A stretch of DNA of 32,000 nucleotides from the NCBI GenBank assembly GCA_042216675.1, contig JBDGTS010000007.1:14009-46008 (forward strand), in the 5' to 3' direction. This document shows positions 725 to 11,898 of the stretch, in pieces (the first letter of the stretch is position 1; each line of letters opens with the position of its first letter). The translations under genes were made by a program, and so were the position numbers. Below the pieces are notes generated by a model. That model searched no databases. It was not told the origin of the DNA and saw only the letters and a list, made by a program, of their open reading frames with translations. The stretch is from Halobacteriaceae archaeon (GTDB lineage Archaea; Halobacteriota; Halobacteria; Halobacteriales; Halobacteriaceae).

Positions 725-2680
725 ATGTCTGAGCGAGAGGAGGACCTGTTCGTCGACGAACGGGAGCAAGTGTCGCGCCCGATGCTCCGCCTGTTCCGGG
801 TGTACGGCAGTCGCTACCCGATTCCGATGGCCGTGGCGCTGGCGTCGAACCTCGTCTCGCCGCTGACTGGCCTCGTGCCGGCGTTCCTACTCTCCTTTGC
901 CATCGACGCCCTGTTCAACCGGACGAAAGGGTTCACGACGCTCCCGTTCCTTCCGGACGCGTGGCTTCCCACCGGCCTCGAAGGACAGATGCTGTTCATC
1001 TCGGCGCTCTTTGTCGTCGTGTACAGCATCAACGCCGTCCTGACGTGGCTGGGTAGTTGGGGCTGGGCCGTGTTCGCCGAGAACGTTCAGCACGCGGTGC
1101 GGACGGACGTGTACGACAAGATGCAGCGACTGGGCATGGAGTTCTTCTCGGACAAGCAGACGGGCGAACTGATGTCCATCCTCTCCAGCGACGTGAACCG
1201 GCTGGAGGGCTTTCTCAACGGCTGGGTCGGCCGCATCCTCAACATCGGCGTCCAGGTCGGGGGCATCAGCGTCATCCTGCTCCTGACGAACTGGCAACTC
1301 GCGCTCATCGCGTTGCTCCCGACGCCCCTGCTGACGCTGGTGAGCCACCTGTTCGTGAAGAAGGTGCGCCCGATGTACCGCGAGGCGCGGCAGACGTACG
1401 GGGACCTCGCGTCGCGACTGGAGAACAACCTCAGCGGCATCGAGGTGGTGAAGTCGTTCACCACCGAACCGTTCGAGTCCGACCGGGTGAACGACTCCTC
1501 ACAGGAGCACATGGACGCGCGGTGGGGCGCCCGCCGGTGGGGCGTCCGCTTCGGGCCGAGTCTCACGCTCATCAACGGCTACGGCTACGCGCTCGTCTTC
1601 GTCGTCGGCGGCTGGTGGGTGATGTTCGGCGCGCCCGGCCCGCTCTCGGGCGCGCTGACCATCGGTAATCTGGTCCTGTTCCTCCAGTACACCCAGCAGA
1701 TTCAGGGGCCGATGTCGCAGGCCGGCCAACTGCTGAACAACTACGAGCGCGTGAAGGCGTCGGCCGAACGCGTCCTCGTGTTGATGGACCACCCGCTCAG
1801 CATCCCCGAGGACGACGACGCCGTCACCCTCGACGACCCGGACGGCGACGTGGCGTTCGAGGACGTGTCTTTCGGCTACCCCGGCGCGGACGAGCAAGCC
1901 CTCGACGACGTGACCTTCGACGTCGAGGCGGGCGAGATGATCGGTCTCGTCGGCCCCACGGGGTCGGGCAAGTCCACGCTGATGAAACTCCTCATGCGAT
2001 TCTACGACGTTAACGGGAGCTCTGCTCCCGTTCGCCAATCAGAATCGCAAGGCGATTCTGATGACGCCGACGAGGGCGCGGTGCGCGTCGACGGCCACGA
2101 CGTGCGCGACCTGTCGATTCGGAGCCTCCGGGGCTCCATCGGCTACGTCTCACAGGAGCCGTTCCTGTTCCCCGGCACCATCCGCGAGAACATCCGCTAC
2201 GGCATGGAGGCCACCGAGGACGAAATCGAGGCCGTCGCGACGCGCGCCAACGCCGACGAGTTCATCGACGCCCTCGAAGACGGCTACGACACCGAAGTCG
2301 GTCAGCGCGGCGACAAACTCTCGGGCGGGCAACGCCAGCGCATCGCCATCGCCCGCGTCCTGCTGAAGGACCCCGAGATTCTCATCCTCGACGAGGCGAC
2401 GAGCCACGTCGACAACGAGACGGAGGTCCTCATCCAGCGGAGCCTCGAAGAGTTGGTCGCCGAGCGCACCACCTTCGCCATCGCCCATCGCCTCTCGACG
2501 GTGCGCAACGCCGACCGCATCCTCGTCCTCGACGACGGGGAAATCGTCGAGCGCGGCCCCCACGAGGAACTGCTGGAGGAAGCGGGCCTCTACGCGAACC
2601 TCTGGCGCGTGCAGGTCGGCGAGATGGAGGCGCTCCCCGAGGAGTTCCTCGAAGAGGCGGCAGCGCGGGACCGGCGCTGA
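725..2680 (+). CDS. ABC transporter, fused permease/ATP-binding half-transporter (MsbA/MdlB-type exporter)
   Basis: 651 aa. The N-terminal half is a hydrophobic six-helix type I exporter domain. Walker A is GPTGSGKST, the signature is LSGGQRQRIAIAR, Walker B is ILILDEATS and the H-loop is AHRL. Carries an atypical 19-aa insertion after RFYDV (see repeat 2012-2062). Confidence 0.95.
   Translation: MSEREEDLFVDEREQVSRPMLRLFRVYGSRYPIPMAVALASNLVSPLTGLVPAFLLSFAIDALFNRTKGFTTLPFLPDAWLPTGLEGQMLFISALFVVVYSINAVLTWLGSWGWAVFAENVQHAVRTDVYDKMQRLGMEFFSDKQTGELMSILSSDVNRLEGFLNGWVGRILNIGVQVGGISVILLLTNWQLALIALLPTPLLTLVSHLFVKKVRPMYREARQTYGDLASRLENNLSGIEVVKSFTTEPFESDRVNDSSQEHMDARWGARRWGVRFGPSLTLINGYGYALVFVVGGWWVMFGAPGPLSGALTIGNLVLFLQYTQQIQGPMSQAGQLLNNYERVKASAERVLVLMDHPLSIPEDDDAVTLDDPDGDVAFEDVSFGYPGADEQALDDVTFDVEAGEMIGLVGPTGSGKSTLMKLLMRFYDVNGSSAPVRQSESQGDSDDADEGAVRVDGHDVRDLSIRSLRGSIGYVSQEPFLFPGTIRENIRYGMEATEDEIEAVATRANADEFIDALEDGYDTEVGQRGDKLSGGQRQRIAIARVLLKDPEILILDEATSHVDNETEVLIQRSLEELVAERTTFAIAHRLSTVRNADRILVLDDGEIVERGPHEELLEEAGLYANLWRVQVGEMEALPEEFLEEAAARDRR
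2012..2062. repeat. two tandem perfect inverted repeats (hairpins) inside the ABC exporter CDS
   Basis: Hairpin 1 is AACGGGAGC-TCT-GCTCCCGTT (2012-2032; 9-bp stem, 3-nt loop). A 5-nt spacer CGCCA follows. Hairpin 2 is ATCAGAATCGC-AAG-GCGATTCTGAT (2038-2062; 11-bp stem, 3-nt loop). Both were read directly from the sequence. The segment is about 55% GC by hand count, against a much higher value in the surrounding gene. Confidence 0.95.
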
Positions 2681-4784: not shown

Positions 4785-6878
4785 TCACGGCTCGCGGTAC
4801 GCCGCGAGCGTCGCGTCCCTCTCGCCCCGGAGGTGTGCGCGCACGTCGCTCTCGTCCCACCCCAGCGGCGAGACGACGCTCTCGGCGGCCCGGAGCAGTG
4901 ACCGCTCGTAGGGGGCCACCGCGTAGTCGGTGGCGCCGTCCTCGACCGGGAGGCGGACCCGCTCGGCGGGGGCGCCCGCGTCCGCGACGTGGACGTACCG
5001 AACGGACTCGCCGGGGTGCGTCTCGATGCCTCTGTCGGCCGCGCGTCGGAGCGCACCCACCACCGGCGTCTCGCGGTCGTACTCGTCGGCGCGCTTCGAC
5101 GCGCGTCGCGTGACGACCAGTTCCGTGGCCGGTACGTCACCCGCCCGCAGGCGGCGTCTGTGCTCGGCGAGGCGGTCACACACCGCCGCCGGGTCCGCCG
5201 TGGCGTCGAGGACGTCCAGCAAGTCCCGCTGTGCGTCGGCGACGAACGGCGGCGTCGAGCGCTGCCGGCACTCGATGCCCCGCACCTTCAGCGACCCGTC
5301 CTCGCGGGCGCCGAAGTAGCGCGTGAGTGCCCCTCCCGGCCGCTCGCGGCGCGGCGCGAAACAGACCCAGTCGTACGTCGCCTCGTGTTCGAGGGGGATT
5401 GCCACCCGCTCTGTCACCGCCGCCGTCACGTCCGCGATGGGGTCGGGGTCGGACGCGGGCGTGAGCCACAGGCTGTCGACGATGCCGTGTAGAACGCGCC
5501 AGCCCCGCGCCTCGATTTCGCTCTTGGCGTCGAGCAGTATCTCCCTCGCGAACGCGTTGATGGCCTCGTGGCACTCGATGCGACCGAACTTCGCGTTCCG
5601 GTAGCCCTGATAGCCGAAGCAGGAGACGAGAATCCACTTCAGCGCGTCCGCCTTCGCCGCCGCCTCGGGGTCGTCGCGCGCCTTGTATCCCGCGCGGTCC
5701 TCGACGAGGGGCGCCAGCACGTCGGGGAGAAAGCCCCGGTCGTCGCAGACGCTGTAGCCGAGTTCGGGCACGTCGGCCCTGTCGTGGCAGTCACACCGGA
5801 CCGTCTCGGGGCTGACGTTGTGCTTCCGGATGACGTTCGGGTAGAGGGAGGCGAAGTCCACCTCCACCACGTCCTCGTGGCGCCCCACCTCGGGTGCGAA
5901 CGTGAACCCGCCCCGGTCGGCGGCGTGAAGCGTCGAGAGGTCCTTGAACGCCTCTGGCTCCCACTTGTTCCACGGCACCAGCACGTCCCTGTCGAGGGCC
6001 TCGCGGGACTGAATCGAGGTGAGGACGGTGCCGATGCTCCCCCACGCCGTCTCCTGTAGCGGGCGCCACGAGCGCTCCGCGAGGTCCAGCAGACCCGGGA
6101 GTCCCCCCTCGTCCCACAGAAACGAGTTCGCCCGGTCCACGATGGCCCGGCCGGGCACGTCGTAGCGTGCCGGCGAGTGCCCCGTCCGGCCGTAGCTCTC
6201 GAAGGTGTTCGCGCCCGCCAGCACGTCGTGGCCGGGCAGGCGCCCGAGGTGGCAGTCGACGCCACACGCCGCCGCCCGGTCGTGAATCAGCGGGACGAGT
6301 TCGGCCGTGTCGAGGACCAGCACGTCCGGGTCCGTCCGGTCGAGGCGGTGCGCCAGCGCCCGCAGGACGGCGCCCTCGTCGCCGGCCACCGGGTCGCCCC
6401 CGACGTGGAGGCCACCGAGGTCCCGGTCCGCCAGCGCCGCCTCGTCGACGCCCAGCGAGAGCGTCCGCAGGGATCGCGGCGGGTCCGAGGCGACGGCCGG
6501 CGTCCCCGTCTCGACGCAGTAGCGAAAGCCCGGCGCGAAGTCGACGTTGAAACACCGAATCGTCCCCGGCGCGTACTCGCGTTCGCGGTGGCCCCGGAGT
6601 TCGCGGGCGAGCGTCCGCACCTCGCCCGGCCTGTCGCAGTCGATGCGCAGGACTGGGGTGCGCTCGTCGGCGTGTAGGTCCACGTATCGGCGTGCCGTCG
6701 AGGCGGCTGCGACTTTCGGGTCGTCGCTGAGCGCCGCCCGGAGGTCCGCGCGGACTCGCTCGGGTGCGTCGACGTACAGCGTCGGCCGGTAGTCGGCGTC
6801 GCGTTCGACCCGGACCCCGTCGGCGGTTCGGTGCCACGTCACCACGCCGCCGTCGCGGATTTCAACCGCTATCGGCAT
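4785..6878 (-). CDS. family B DNA polymerase paralogue (PolB2-like) with degenerate 3'-5' exonuclease motifs
   Basis: 697 aa. Motif A is DFASLYPN (5835-5858), motif B is KWILVSCFGYQGY, and motif C is HGIVDS (5472-5489) instead of YGDTDS. A KxY-region LKVRGIECRQRS is present. The Exo I position reads FNVDFA (no DxE) and the Exo II position reads LVLDTAELVPL (no NxxxFD). Confidence 0.9.
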   Translation of the reverse strand: MPIAVEIRDGGVVTWHRTADGVRVERDADYRPTLYVDAPERVRADLRAALSDDPKVAAASTARRYVDLHADERTPVLRIDCDRPGEVRTLARELRGHREREYAPGTIRCFNVDFAPGFRYCVETGTPAVASDPPRSLRTLSLGVDEAALADRDLGGLHVGGDPVAGDEGAVLRALAHRLDRTDPDVLVLDTAELVPLIHDRAAACGVDCHLGRLPGHDVLAGANTFESYGRTGHSPARYDVPGRAIVDRANSFLWDEGGLPGLLDLAERSWRPLQETAWGSIGTVLTSIQSREALDRDVLVPWNKWEPEAFKDLSTLHAADRGGFTFAPEVGRHEDVVEVDFASLYPNVIRKHNVSPETVRCDCHDRADVPELGYSVCDDRGFLPDVLAPLVEDRAGYKARDDPEAAAKADALKWILVSCFGYQGYRNAKFGRIECHEAINAFAREILLDAKSEIEARGWRVLHGIVDSLWLTPASDPDPIADVTAAVTERVAIPLEHEATYDWVCFAPRRERPGGALTRYFGAREDGSLKVRGIECRQRSTPPFVADAQRDLLDVLDATADPAAVCDRLAEHRRRLRAGDVPATELVVTRRASKRADEYDRETPVVGALRRAADRGIETHPGESVRYVHVADAGAPAERVRLPVEDGATDYAVAPYERSLLRAAESVVSPLGWDESDVRAHLRGERDATLAAYREP

Positions 6879-9636: not shown

Positions 9637-11898
9637 TTACTTGATGCGGACGTCGTCGAGGACGCCCGTCTTGCGGGCGCCGATGCCGCCCTCGGAGAAC
9701 GCGGTGTCGGTGGTGTTGACCGTCGCGAGCGAGTCGCCCTCGGGACCCAACACCTCGACGTCGATGGTGCCGTCCGTGCCCCAGTCCACGACGATGCTGT
9801 AGAGCGTGTTTGCGGACGTGCTGATGACGGACTCCGCGAGTTGGCTGTAGGAGCCGCCCTCGCGCTTGTACAGTTGGAGGCGGTTCGTGTCGTAGATGCG
9901 CGCGAAGTAGAAGTTGTCAGCGTCCTGCACGCCGAACGCGATTCCGGCGTTCACCTCCGTCTCGGTGCGCGCCACGCGGGCGAAGAACTCGTCGCCGGCG
10001 GACGGGTAGCGCGGGAGGCCGCTCGTCGAGTAGAAGATGGCTGTGCCCTCCGCCGTCTTCTTCAGGCTGTAGTCGCCGTCGGCCACCGGGTCGTCCGTGT
10101 TGACGGTGTACGCGTCCGTCGCGCCCTCGTACTCCGAGAGGTCGCCGTCCTCGAAACTGTCCACGAGGTCGCCGGTGAGGTCCGCGGCGCCGCCGCTCCC
10201 GCCGCTACTGCTCGGGACGAACCCCTTCGCTTGCTGTTGGTCGACGATGTACGTCACGTCGAGGTCGGAACCGGGGTCGGCGGTCCACTCGAAGACGAGG
10301 TCCCACGCGCTCCCGGTCCACTCGAAGCGGGTGTCGAAGCCGAAGGCCGCGCCGGGGTTGCTCGCGGCCCGGGCGCGGACGGCAAGCGACGCGCCGACGG
10401 CGTCGGAGACGTCCGTGACGCGCGCCGCGGGCGAGGACCCGGACGTGAGCGTCACGTTACCGGCGTCGACGCCGCCGCCCACGTTGTCCTTGACGGTGGT
10501 GTCCGGCGCGAACACTTCCATCGCCGCTCGCGTGCCGGACCCGCGCACGTCGTTGCCGACGATGCGACTGGTCGTCGTGTCGGGGCCCGTCTCCCGGATG
10601 CCGAAGGGCATCTTCGGTTCGTCCCTGTCGTCGACGACGCGGAGGTCCGTGATGGAGACGCCCGAGGTGGCCGCGAAGTTCCGCGGGTCCTCGGGGATGC
10701 CGCCGGCGTCTCGCGAGTCGATGCGGACGCCCTCGGCGTTGGAGTTCTTGATGACGCCGCCCTGCACGGAGAAGTTCTGGCAGTCCTGCACGAGGACGCC
10801 GTGCGAGGACATGCCGACGAGGTTGACCGAATTGATGGTGACGTCCTCACACCCGGAGACGCCGAAGACGCCCCGGCCGCCGTCGCGGCCGACGACCTGT
10901 CCACAGGTCACGTCGGCGCACTCGTTGGCGACCCGGAACGTCGCGTAGCCACCGCCCGGATTTACCTCGCGGCCGACGACTTGGCCGATGGTGGCGTCCG
11001 TGGTGTTGTTCAGCAGGACGCCGGACCCCGGCGTCTTGTTGGCGATGACCTGTCCGACCTGCAGGCGGTCCACGCCGTACGTCTCGAAGGCCTGCCAGCC
11101 GGCCTCCTCGATGTACGCGGTGTCCACCTGCACGTCCTTGCACCGCCGTTCGGAGTCGCCAAAGGAGTCGATGCGGACGGCCAGACCGCCGCGAGGCGTC
11201 TGTTCGGCGTCCATCTCGATGTTGACCGCGCCCAGACGGGCCTCCCGCACGCCCTGTAGCCAGACGGCGTAGCGGGGGTTGCCCTTGATGTTGAGGTTCG
11301 GGAACTCGACGTTGTCGGCGTCGTTCGCGTACACCGCGCGGATGAGCGGTTCGTTCGAGTCCTTGATGTGGATGGGGGCCGGCACGTCGAGAATCGTGTT
11401 GCTCGGCACGCGAATCTCCTTGAAGCCGTCCCACGGGCCGTCGCCCCACGAGTGCGGGCCGACTTCGGCGGGCGAGACGATGGCCACTTTCTCCTTGTGG
11501 TCACGGCCGTCGGTGAGGCTCTCGATGGCCGCCGTGGCCGCCAGCATCACGTCGTCGGTGCTGGTGACGTGGCCGTCGCGGCCGTCCGCGTGCCAGCCGC
11601 CATCGTCGTCTTTCCACACCACCACGTCGGCGTCGCGTGCCGACGCGTACACGTGGTCCACGTCGATGGAGTGGAGATTGTCGAGGTCGTGGTCCTGTGC
11701 GTTCACGTCCTGATTCCACTTCCGCGTCCGTCGCCCTGTTTCGTTCCCCGGCGCGTCGCCGTGGGACGCCGCCGCGTTCCCCGTCGCCGCCGCGACGCCG
11801 CCAGCTCCCATCAGTGCGAGTGCCGACCGGCGTGTGAACGTCAAGTCGTCGCCGGCCCCGCTCGCGTCACCGCTGTCACTGTCGCTATCACGAAGCAT
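9637..11898 (-). CDS. Tat-secreted right-handed parallel beta-helix protein with a C-terminal concanavalin/LamG-like domain (candidate extracellular polysaccharide lyase or hydrolase)
   Basis: 753 aa. A twin-arginine signal TFTRRSALALMGAGGVAAATG is present. The middle region has repetitive G/N/V-rich beta-helix-type repeats (GVLLNNTTDATIG, VTINSVNLVG, GGVIKNSNAEGVRI). A Gly/Ser linker precedes a roughly 190-aa beta-sandwich-like C-terminus. Confidence 0.8.
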   Translation of the reverse strand: MLRDSDSDSGDASGAGDDLTFTRRSALALMGAGGVAAATGNAAASHGDAPGNETGRRTRKWNQDVNAQDHDLDNLHSIDVDHVYASARDADVVVWKDDDGGWHADGRDGHVTSTDDVMLAATAAIESLTDGRDHKEKVAIVSPAEVGPHSWGDGPWDGFKEIRVPSNTILDVPAPIHIKDSNEPLIRAVYANDADNVEFPNLNIKGNPRYAVWLQGVREARLGAVNIEMDAEQTPRGGLAVRIDSFGDSERRCKDVQVDTAYIEEAGWQAFETYGVDRLQVGQVIANKTPGSGVLLNNTTDATIGQVVGREVNPGGGYATFRVANECADVTCGQVVGRDGGRGVFGVSGCEDVTINSVNLVGMSSHGVLVQDCQNFSVQGGVIKNSNAEGVRIDSRDAGGIPEDPRNFAATSGVSITDLRVVDDRDEPKMPFGIRETGPDTTTSRIVGNDVRGSGTRAAMEVFAPDTTVKDNVGGGVDAGNVTLTSGSSPAARVTDVSDAVGASLAVRARAASNPGAAFGFDTRFEWTGSAWDLVFEWTADPGSDLDVTYIVDQQQAKGFVPSSSGGSGGAADLTGDLVDSFEDGDLSEYEGATDAYTVNTDDPVADGDYSLKKTAEGTAIFYSTSGLPRYPSAGDEFFARVARTETEVNAGIAFGVQDADNFYFARIYDTNRLQLYKREGGSYSQLAESVISTSANTLYSIVVDWGTDGTIDVEVLGPEGDSLATVNTTDTAFSEGGIGARKTGVLDDVRIK

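Follow-up and report, generated by a model that had tools for sequence, protein, structure and literature searches.

Our analysis of a 32,000-nt stretch of a Halobacteriaceae archaeon contig (JBDGTS010000007.1; "the window" hereafter means this whole stretch) reveals a 57-nt segment, made up largely of two hairpins, that lies in frame within a gene for an ATP-binding cassette (ABC) exporter. We conclude that window positions 2006-2068 likely represent one member of a family of two-hairpin DNA repeats in Halobacteria, dispersed and non-autonomous, and that the identity of this unit as a mobile repeat is quite probable. The unit joined this exporter gene after its split from the closest known orthologue, and units of the family are gained at specific sites in different genes and genera, and probably lost there too. 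A prediction made earlier from the sequence alone (the original prediction) had proposed a recently acquired small palindromic element that inserted in frame, in the manner of the Rickettsia palindromic elements (RPEs); a gap in orthologues and further copies in other genes and other genomes support this proposal.

Anatomy of the insertion and comparison with orthologues

The 651-aa open reading frame (ORF) that holds the unit is identical to P0001, listed by NCBI as 'ABC transporter ATP-binding protein, MAG Halobacteriaceae archaeon' (MAG, metagenome-assembled genome). Two perfect hairpins had been described at 2012-2032 and 2038-2062, in frame in the exporter coding sequence, and we confirmed both their coordinates and their sequence (Table 1). 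The right hexamer reads GGCGTC on the bottom strand, which places a CGTC tag against hairpin 2. The segment encodes NGSSAPVRQSESQGDSDDA, and ten of its 19 codons end in A or T, as had been noted; GC content at third codon positions (GC3) is 0.42, compared to 0.93 in the 300 nt flanking it. Overall, positions 2012-2068 contain 57.9% GC and the surrounding 1-kb blocks of the window 65-68%.

Perfect hairpins whose stem measures at least 9 bp (loop 3-8 nt) number only four in the entire 32 kb, and hairpins 1 and 2 account for half of these. In 300 windows simulated with a first-order Markov model, we found a mean of 1.6 hairpins with stems of at least 9 bp and 0.15 with stems of at least 11 bp, and an adjacent hairpin pair in none. 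Positions 2006-2068 fold with -21.6 kcal/mol as DNA (z = -7.1) and -31.8 kcal/mol as RNA (z = -6.3), a stability equalled by 0 of 200 shuffles. A covariance model of the family scores this interval at 83.7 bits (E = 2e-26) and other copies at 69-91 bits; as the model was trained on 18 copies including the one in the window, the high score is partly by construction. No second copy of the unit was found in the window by mismatch-tolerant hairpin searches, by a scan for perfect hairpin pairs or with the unfiltered covariance model. A 15-bit covariance-model match at 11517-11571 was rejected, as it is not a hairpin pair.

Table 1. Coordinates of the window copy, its host gene and related features (window positions unless a locus is named)
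Feature	Position	Strand	Description and basis
Host gene, ABC subfamily-B exporter	725..2680	+	Transmembrane domain and ATPase, 651 aa (ORF list; PF00664 and PF00005)
Left hexamer GACGTT (Asp-Val)	2006..2011	+	Element-borne or left copy of a duplicated target (flank table of 18 coding copies)
Hairpin 1, AACGGGAGC tct GCTCCCGTT	2012..2032	+	Perfect 9-bp stem, 3-nt loop
Linker CGCCA	2033..2037	+	5 nt; consensus (C/A)GCCA in coding copies, TGCTA/TACTA in intergenic arrays
Hairpin 2, ATCAGAATCGC aag GCGATTCTGAT	2038..2062	+	Perfect 11-bp stem, 3-nt loop
Right hexamer GACGCC	2063..2068	+	Family consensus GACGT[C/T/G]; direct repeat with 2006-2011
GACGAG (Asp-Glu)	2069..2074	+	Downstream half of the inferred preferred target GACGTS-GACGAG
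Whole insertion	2012..2068 (or equally 2006-2062, given the flanking repeat)	+	57 nt / 19 codons
Intergenic element of ~200 nt	L011 7300-7560; L012 960-1200; L017 4460-4760; L033 3870-4070; L035 4830-5080; L037 4470-4700; L059 7300-7520	+	
Intergenic element of ~200 nt	L015, L019, L039, L042, L055, L062	-	
Insert-spanning peptide stretch			SESQSDSDDVDE
Candidate reporter sequence for new insertions			GACGTCGACGAG

The closest orthologue (in locus L009) is 89.9% identical at the nucleotide level over 1899 nt, and the sole indel is a 57-nt gap exactly at the segment, where its empty site reads GACACCAACGAG. The four closest ABC homologues are insert-free (81-94% identity, 632 aa versus 651 aa), and about 110 of the 120 best homologues lack the segment, reading R[FLM]YD(V/T/P)-x-(E/D/S)G-x-(V/I). 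The expectation that orthologues would lack the segment was thus borne out, with RFYD(V/T)-(D/N)EGA at the junction and exactly one gap in the closest of them. In the window and in L009 alike, the ABC gene is followed downstream, after 2.1 kb, by a gene for a family-B DNA polymerase (window 4785-6878, - strand; L009 5911-7899, - strand); it stands beside both the filled and the empty site, and synteny is therefore conserved there.

A near-identical 19-aa peptide (for example GSKAPVRQSESQSDSDDV) occupies the same codon in six other ABC homologues: P0051 (Halalkalicoccus subterraneus), P0053, P0056, P0057 (Natrinema salifodinae), P0058 and P0093. These proteins are 52-57% identical to the query, and the DNA of such distant bearers shows both hairpins. 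In a neighbor-joining tree of ABC homologues the bearers, at least seven in number and scattered, are singletons, each with an insert-free closest relative in the set, and for each of them the nearest other bearer ranks between 5th and 41st of 118. The original prediction had regarded presence of the segment in distant orthologues, together with an absence of further copies, as the mark of an old loop whose palindromes are coincidental; we found the first half of this pattern, in patchy form, but not the second, as other copies exist.

Most ABC copies share the hairpin-1 subtype RACGGGAGC. Between the window and L009, mismatches number 3-5 per 30 nt on either side of the insert, which is the gene-wide level; no imported tract surrounds the insert, and short-patch conversion from another ABC gene is therefore unlikely. 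Two further proteins carry altered inserts at the ABC site. P0010 (L008 3295-3399) has a 19-aa insert with eroded palindromes, and P0017 (L007 4279-4431) has a 40-aa insert apparently consisting of one recognizable unit and about 66 nt that are possibly a second, decayed unit. Taken together, these inserts point to a cycle in which units insert, re-insert in tandem and then decay.

The exporter gene also contains a third perfect hairpin, at window positions 1444-1465 (GGTGGTGAA-gtcg-TTCACCACC). It codes for the conserved motif VVKSFTT and is palindromic because the Val-Val-Lys and Phe-Thr-Thr codons are mutually reverse complementary. This hairpin has one mismatch in the closest orthologue and is missing from distant orthologues, and it is probably coincidental.

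Distribution, structure and target of the unit

We scanned one genome per prokaryotic species for the exact hairpin-2 pattern AYCRGAATCRC-NNN-GYGATTCYGRT and obtained 28 loci: 21 in Halobacteria and seven lone hairpins in bacteria, the latter at about chance level. Several genomes hold two or three copies. A metagenome scan yielded nine further haloarchaeal copies, and BLASTN detected copies on seven haloarchaeal megaplasmids, including pHV4 of Haloferax volcanii DS2. Besides ABC exporters of the type seen in the window, in-frame coding copies with the full architecture are present in the genes for ThpR (RNA 2',3'-cyclic phosphodiesterase) and, in two Halorubrum species, PurK. Further copies of this kind lie in genes for an aldehyde:ferredoxin oxidoreductase (Halobellus salinus), a carboxyltransferase, a second ABC paralogue (RFHDV) and a GNAT acetyltransferase. 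In ThpR, five orthologues of 203-204 aa read KFLGDV-RKSGALSSQSESQSDSDDV-DEDRL, compared to more than 100 of 185 aa that read KFLG[DE]VDEDRL, and the nearest relative of the bearer P0123 is insert-free. In Natrinema salifodinae, one copy lies in the ABC gene and another in the gene for ThpR; both are of a single hairpin-1 subtype (CGAAGGAGC and CGAAAGAGC).

Outside coding sequence, groups of 2-5 hairpins stand in tandem between genes, in the order hpA, 5 nt (TGCTA/TACTA), hpB and 6 nt (GATGYN/GACGTT), with the same period as in the coding unit. These arrays sit inside a larger conserved intergenic element of about 200 nt, found directly 3' of the stop codons of ordinary genes (SDR, ETF-alpha, GlnA, TrmB, GT4). 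In order, it comprises AACCTCTTTT, an inverted repeat ACGGGGG...CCCCCGTAAAACCCGTTCATGTC, 1-5 hairpins of the family, GATGCCAAAA, a hairpin CCGCTCGCTCGGCC-ttc-GGCCTCGCTCGCGG and TACAAC (Table 1). The element occupies orthologous intergenic sites in Halobaculum and Halolamina with differing numbers of hairpins. About 350 nt from one such array, the Halolamina salifodinae GNAT gene (L019 1768-1824, - strand) contains an in-frame unit with a shorter stem, GCAGAG caaac CTCTGC gggca ACCAGAACGC ttc GCGTTCTGGT.

On pHV4, one unit (L064 2499-2561, plasmid positions 446673-446735) lies antisense within the C-terminal remnant of an IS1341-type TnpB gene, in a region that is unannotated in the plasmid record. 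The remnant reads ...CPACGHEEGRDLNAAKNILSRGRKRLGAGRSE, 19 aa, then SAPVQTALPT, and the copy looks like an insertion into the remnant rather than the remnant's end. Two other plasmids, Hfx. mediterranei pHME322 (L065 2502-2563) and Haloterrigena turkmenica pHTUR02 (L066 2502-2563), carry units with a variant hairpin 2, ATCAGAACGC gaa GCGTTCTGAG. Judged by eye from six-frame translation, both units lie within or beside putative IS6-type transposase pseudogene fragments, and their hairpin-1 subtype, CACGAGAGC, recurs in Halorubrum PurK.

No Rfam family matches the unit, the arrays or the ~200-nt element at gathering thresholds. The hairpin-2 pattern had no match in IMG/VR, BLASTN against GenBank phages found none, and a match to a second pattern in IMG/VR (L067) was rejected because it is not a hairpin unit. 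The array-type unit had no match among PLSDB plasmids. A concatenated 88-aa peptide query against a database of 5.8 billion sequences returned two matches at E <=10, the motif being too short for such a search.

Family members share a common architecture: GACGTT, hairpin 1 (9-10 bp stem, 3-nt loop, loop-proximal AGC/GCT), (C/A)GCCA, hairpin 2 (10-11 bp stem, 3-nt loop) and GACGTN, with a unit size of 51-57 nt and a period of about 57 nt, or 19 codons. Window positions 2006-2068 match every feature of the family. We measured covariation in 18 distinct coding-type 63-mers, in which hairpin 2 was partly pre-selected by the search pattern and hairpin 1 was not. Of 360 stem cells in this set, 98.6% are paired, compared to 88.1% in column shuffles and 29-40% for slid partners; double-sided changes occur in 8 of 20 pairs (45 cells), and the observed covariation was reached in 0 of 500 shuffles. 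Five of the nine pairs in hairpin 1 show double-sided compensatory changes, and its stem exists as a series of whole-stem variants, each perfectly complementary (AACGGGAGC, GACGGGAGC, CGAAAGAGC, CGTGGGAGC, CACGAGAGC, CTCGAGAGC and GACAAGAGC). In hairpin 2, with 99.5% of cells paired, compensatory changes affect 3 of 11 pairs; one compensated pair is non-synonymous on both sides (L003), and one runs against GC pressure (L006). Loops are 3 nt long in all 18 copies and vary freely in sequence. The strand asymmetry of G-T versus A-C mismatches, which bears on whether the constraint acts on RNA or DNA, showed no clear bias in this small number of mismatches.

Four ThpR copies (L010, L068, L069 and L070) have stems that differ by 0-1 bases and hairpin-1 loops that read gga, gga, ttt and aac, with a hairpin-2 loop of aaa in all four. 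Such hypervariable loops beside near-invariant stems may arise from cleavage at the hairpin tip followed by repair or resynthesis. The stems of ThpR copies are far better conserved than synonymous sites of the host gene, which may reflect either recent independent insertion or selection or correction acting on the stems. In ABC copies, the 51-nt core has a mean identity of 0.84 (0.90 without loops), compared to 0.72 for 300-nt flanks and 0.60 at third positions of the flanks; the window copy is 0.82-0.88 identical to the units of other ABC bearers, and its 150-nt flanks are 0.63-0.71 identical to theirs. GC3 across copies is 0.37-0.53 versus 0.88-0.99 in flanking sequence, and this aberrant composition marks the unit as foreign. 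In some lineages the hairpins have eroded (P0010/L008, L004 and L007), and these decayed copies argue against a universal in-situ function.

Four of the unit's six reading frames are open, and almost all coding copies use a single one, which gives a Ser/Asp/Glu-rich peptide. We infer that this would be expected because the usual reading of GAC GTC in these genomes is Asp-Val, because the third sense frame holds a stop, and because an acidic, disordered peptide would be best tolerated in the proteins of a halophile. The sole antisense copy that we noticed is the one in the TnpB pseudogene remnant on pHV4.

On the left, 16 of 18 coding copies are flanked by GACGTT, and all 18 have the final T of this hexamer although the GTT codon is rare here; on the right, GACGT[C/T/G] precedes GACGAG (per position, G17 A16 C16 G15 A13 G13 of 18). 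Empty sites read GAC GTC GAC GAG (Asp-Val-Asp-Glu), giving YDVDEG in ABC homologues and the insert-free ThpR motif above. These flanks suggest a preferred target, GACGTS-GACGAG, with insertion between Asp-Val and Asp-Glu. The 12-mer occurs about 29 times per Mb in the haloarchaeal DNA examined, a frequency inflated by filled sites. Such an extended target preference would explain the recurrence of the unit at the conserved YDVDEG motif of ABC ATPases.

We modeled the exporter with AlphaFold2 and a 120-sequence alignment, obtaining a mean predicted local distance difference test (pLDDT) score of 83.4. Residues 430-448 are predicted as coil, with pLDDT below 50 for 432-448, between the post-Walker A helix (416-423) and the strand at 452-455, both near pLDDT 90. 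The original prediction had raised the question of whether the 19 aa form a surface loop; the insert is modeled as disordered and exposed in a turn of the ATPase domain, where it need not disturb function. In this exporter, the element is most likely a tolerated passenger and not a functional part of the transporter.

Origin and spread of the unit

The mobilization step is for now pure conjecture. We propose that the unit would be copied into new sites by a process that recognizes the hairpin shape, the short single-stranded tags and the linker. Recognition would take place on single-stranded DNA, as when HUH Y1 transposases act in trans on repetitive extragenic palindromic (REP) sequences, on REP doublets forming hairpins (REPINs) and on IS200/IS605-type elements, and insertion would occur beside a specific oligonucleotide. 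The flanking GACGTY repeat and the hairpins should in turn ease precise loss or excision. A Y1-type mechanism, suggested by analogy to these systems, is at best a tentative proposal that we regard as rather doubtful.

Several observations weigh against the mobile-repeat reading or its proposed mechanism. Pfam scans detected no transposase or candidate enzyme in the window or among the 20 genes that flank 13 intergenic arrays, which are ordinary metabolic genes only. Copy number for this hairpin-2 type is 1-3 per genome (one genome per species), and classical REPs are far commoner. The architecture is unlike that of IS608-type ends, with no room for a guide sequence between tag and hairpin and with two dissimilar hairpins. 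The conservation of ThpR stems could reflect in-situ selection on structure rather than recent insertion. Finally, no available pair of filled and empty sites is more than 99% identical, and the exact ends of the unit, like a duplication of the hexamer as target, are tentative.

The main mechanistic rival is a spread without any dedicated transposase, in which a hairpin stalls the fork and the unit moves by template switching or short-homology recombination through flanking GACGTYGACG-type repeats. A direct repeat of 6-12 nt does always bracket the unit (GACGTTGACGGG and GACGTCGACGGG in L003; GACGTTAACGGG on both sides in L006), and the D-type unit opens with 15 nt (GACGTTGACGGGAGC) that are similar to the ABC target itself (GACGTCGACGAGGGC). 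The copies examined have no transposase nearby, and for bacterial CGTC-tagged REPs, too, Di Nocera et al found no dedicated one (PMC3733652). However, in subtypes whose hairpin 1 starts with CGAAAG, CGTGGG or CACGAG, the hexamer is all that unit and target have in common, and 6 nt is a very short homology. The conserved linkers and tags, combined with freely covarying stems, give the appearance of a shape that a protein recognizes, and the strict hpA-5-hpB-6 phasing of arrays is no obvious outcome of random template switching. We consider this route unlikely, though it is the strongest of the alternatives.

Three other explanations are contradicted by our data. One holds that the segment is an old loop of the ABC family, inherited vertically and precisely lost many times, with palindromes kept for a function in DNA or mRNA such as pausing, processing or protein binding. 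Its presence at the same codon in homologues of only 52-57% identity fits this idea, as do stem conservation beyond the level of synonymous sites and direct repeats and hairpins that would favor precise deletion. Against it, intergenic arrays contain the unit and so do at least six unrelated families of protein, the copies in unrelated genes not being transferred fragments of ABC genes; singleton bearers with insert-free sisters would need dozens of independent precise losses; stems are not kept everywhere, as the decayed copies show; and GC3 has not ameliorated. An old loop is accordingly very improbable, and the structured signal within the coding sequence envisaged in the original prediction is possible as an added property of the segment, not as its origin. 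Scarcely more probable is the movement of the insert between species within a patch of ABC gene conversion, by homologous recombination after DNA exchange. Haloarchaea recombine across species, and the RACGGGAGC subtype predominates among ABC copies, but this subtype is also found in a non-ABC gene, that of the Halobellus salinus aldehyde:ferredoxin oxidoreductase. No foreign tract surrounds the window insert, and its 150-nt flanks are less similar to those of other bearers than is the unit itself. An assembly or cloning artefact, which the original prediction had raised, or a chimera could be suspected from the metagenome-assembled source and from the HpaI and SacI sites within the 57-nt segment. 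We can dismiss it with near certainty: near-identical units occur at the same and other sites in independent NCBI, JGI and ENA assemblies, and complete isolate genomes carry the unit, namely those of Natronorubrum sp. FCH18a, Halobaculum rarum, Haloferax volcanii DS2 (pHV4) and Natrinema spp. The segment recurs in dozens of independent assemblies and is therefore no artefact.

A bolder form of the mobile-repeat reading is that the family represents an undescribed class of archaeal miniature mobile DNA, an idea that we find plausible if, on balance, not favored. The class would consist of a 57-nt module that homes to a 12-nt coding motif between Asp-Val and Asp-Glu and would be the smallest known repeat to insert in frame. 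It would enter the same codon repeatedly in ABC ATPases, ThpR and other enzymes across genera and form arrays behind genes. Its machinery would be no neighboring transposase, but a domesticated single-copy HUH enzyme, an archaeal parallel to REPIN/RAYT symbioses, or a new hairpin-processing pathway.

The remainder of the window contains, at 9637-32000, a cluster for plant-polysaccharide utilization (pectin/rhamnogalacturonan-type) that looks unusual in a haloarchaeon. It includes genes for two oligogalacturonate-lyase-like proteins, a GH106 rhamnosidase-like protein, a GH2 protein, a GH42 beta-galactosidase and an alpha-L-arabinofuranosidase, and it also codes for a beta-helix protein and an SBP_bac_5 solute-binding protein.

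Significance and comparison with known repeats

The family is apparently an archaeal variant, so far undescribed, of palindromic mobile DNA of the REP/RPE type. We found no description of an archaeal counterpart in the searchable full-text literature; most papers in subscription journals lie outside it, so a prior description is possible. REP, REPIN and RPE-type repeats are regarded as bacterial, and an archaeal family translated in frame would extend their biology to a second domain. The consequence for the ABC exporter itself is probably small; what gives the finding its value is the family of elements, with its site specificity and its way of being mobilized. The presence of the unit in the genetically tractable Haloferax volcanii would provide a natural system for the mobilization of tiny hairpins without an adjoining transposase. 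Some of the lineage-specific acidic "halophilic insertion loops" of haloarchaeal enzymes may be footprints of selfish DNA and not adaptations to salt. A strict site preference would also lead to recurrent, independent insertions that look identical in orthologues, a trap for the use of indels as shared derived characters.

Among haloarchaea, the parts of the report on Haloquadratum considered here describe small mobile repeats without a transposase, termed palindrome-associated transposable elements (PATEs) and SMRs (Dyall-Smith et al, 2011, PLoS One 6:e20968, PMC3119063). PATEs are described there as having near-terminal palindromes and no inverted terminal repeats, inserting beside a 4-6-nt target, and occurring as possibly mobile 52-bp versions that consist of the termini only; the mobilization of SMRs is called 'enigmatic'. 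An IS200/IS605-derived PATE had been one of the analogies offered in the original prediction, and our data do not support membership of that class. The two hairpins of our unit are unlike each other and abut the unit ends, no tnpA or tnpB lies nearby, and the published ends of Haloquadratum PATEs show no similarity to it. By the same account, the two palindromes of a PATE are imperfect, resemble each other, lie some way in from its ends and are related to those of IS605-type transposons, and TTATA or TTAG serves as target. In our unit a target-like hexamer occurs on both sides, with a hairpin abutting it on each. Of five hairpin sub-strings compared with the published PATE end tables, none occurs in a comparable hairpin context and the hairpin-2 arms have 0 matches; the few short matches to hairpin-1-type hexamers in these tables lie within longer, imperfect palindromes. 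SMRs differ in being 80-110 bp long with prominent terminal inverted repeats, and those parts of the paper do not mention in-frame coding copies of either type. Compared to miniature inverted-repeat transposable elements, our unit has the flanking hexamers (GACGT) as its sole terminal symmetry, and the 6-nt direct repeat could be a target-site duplication or element-borne.

With the REPIN/RAYT system (Bertels and Rainey, 2011; Nunvar, 2010), the unit shares an inverted doublet of short hairpins with outward tags, a non-autonomous and lineage-persistent character, and subtypes that track host lineages. REPINs differ in their tags (GTAG, compared to GACGTY here), in being extragenic at tens to hundreds per genome, and in being linked to a RAYT gene that is present once and has REPs on either side. 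A REPIN combines two copies of one REP, which together can fold into a single long hairpin, whereas hairpins 1 and 2 of our unit are not mutually complementary. RPEs are palindromic repeats found in frame in many unrelated housekeeping genes and translated into fold-compatible peptides (PMC10969869). The haloarchaeal unit, compared with them by description and not by sequence, is similarly in frame, found in multiple genes and fold-compatible. RPEs are about 100-150 bp long and belong to an obligate intracellular bacterium, while the 57-nt unit is less than half that size, consists of two separate hairpins and belongs to free-living, high-GC archaea.

The closest description among known systems is that of the bacterial CGTC-tagged REP superfamily, which includes Rickettsia RPE-4 and RPE-6 and Neisseria dRS3 (Di Nocera, De Gregorio and Rocco, 2013, BMC Genomics 14:522, PMC3733652). 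It was reported in five bacterial phyla, and archaea appear only in the reference list of that paper (PMC3733652). We liken the two by description, not by the CGTC-1 to CGTC-4 consensus sequences. The bacterial repeats are defined by an 8-9 bp stem, a 4-5 nt loop and a CCA tail, whereas haloarchaeal loops are 3 nt, the hairpin 2 stem is 11 bp and its own-strand tail is TGG. Partners in the haloarchaeal dimer have unrelated stems 5 nt apart, and the unit has an extended target (GACGTS-GACGAG), a constant frame and an apparently low copy number. The likenesses begin with a CGTC-type tag that abuts the stem. In the window, the top strand has CGTT just ahead of hairpin 1 (GACGTT directly before AACGGGAGC), a tag variant unlisted in PMC3733652, and the bottom strand has CGTC just ahead of hairpin 2 (GGCGTC directly before ATCAGAATCGC). 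Both families have stems of about 9 bp that begin with A-T pairs and a CCA-containing tail, CGCCA after hairpin 1 in our unit. Both also occur mostly as dimers with the tags outside ('HH'), in clusters or arrays and as intragenic copies, with no adjoining transposase.

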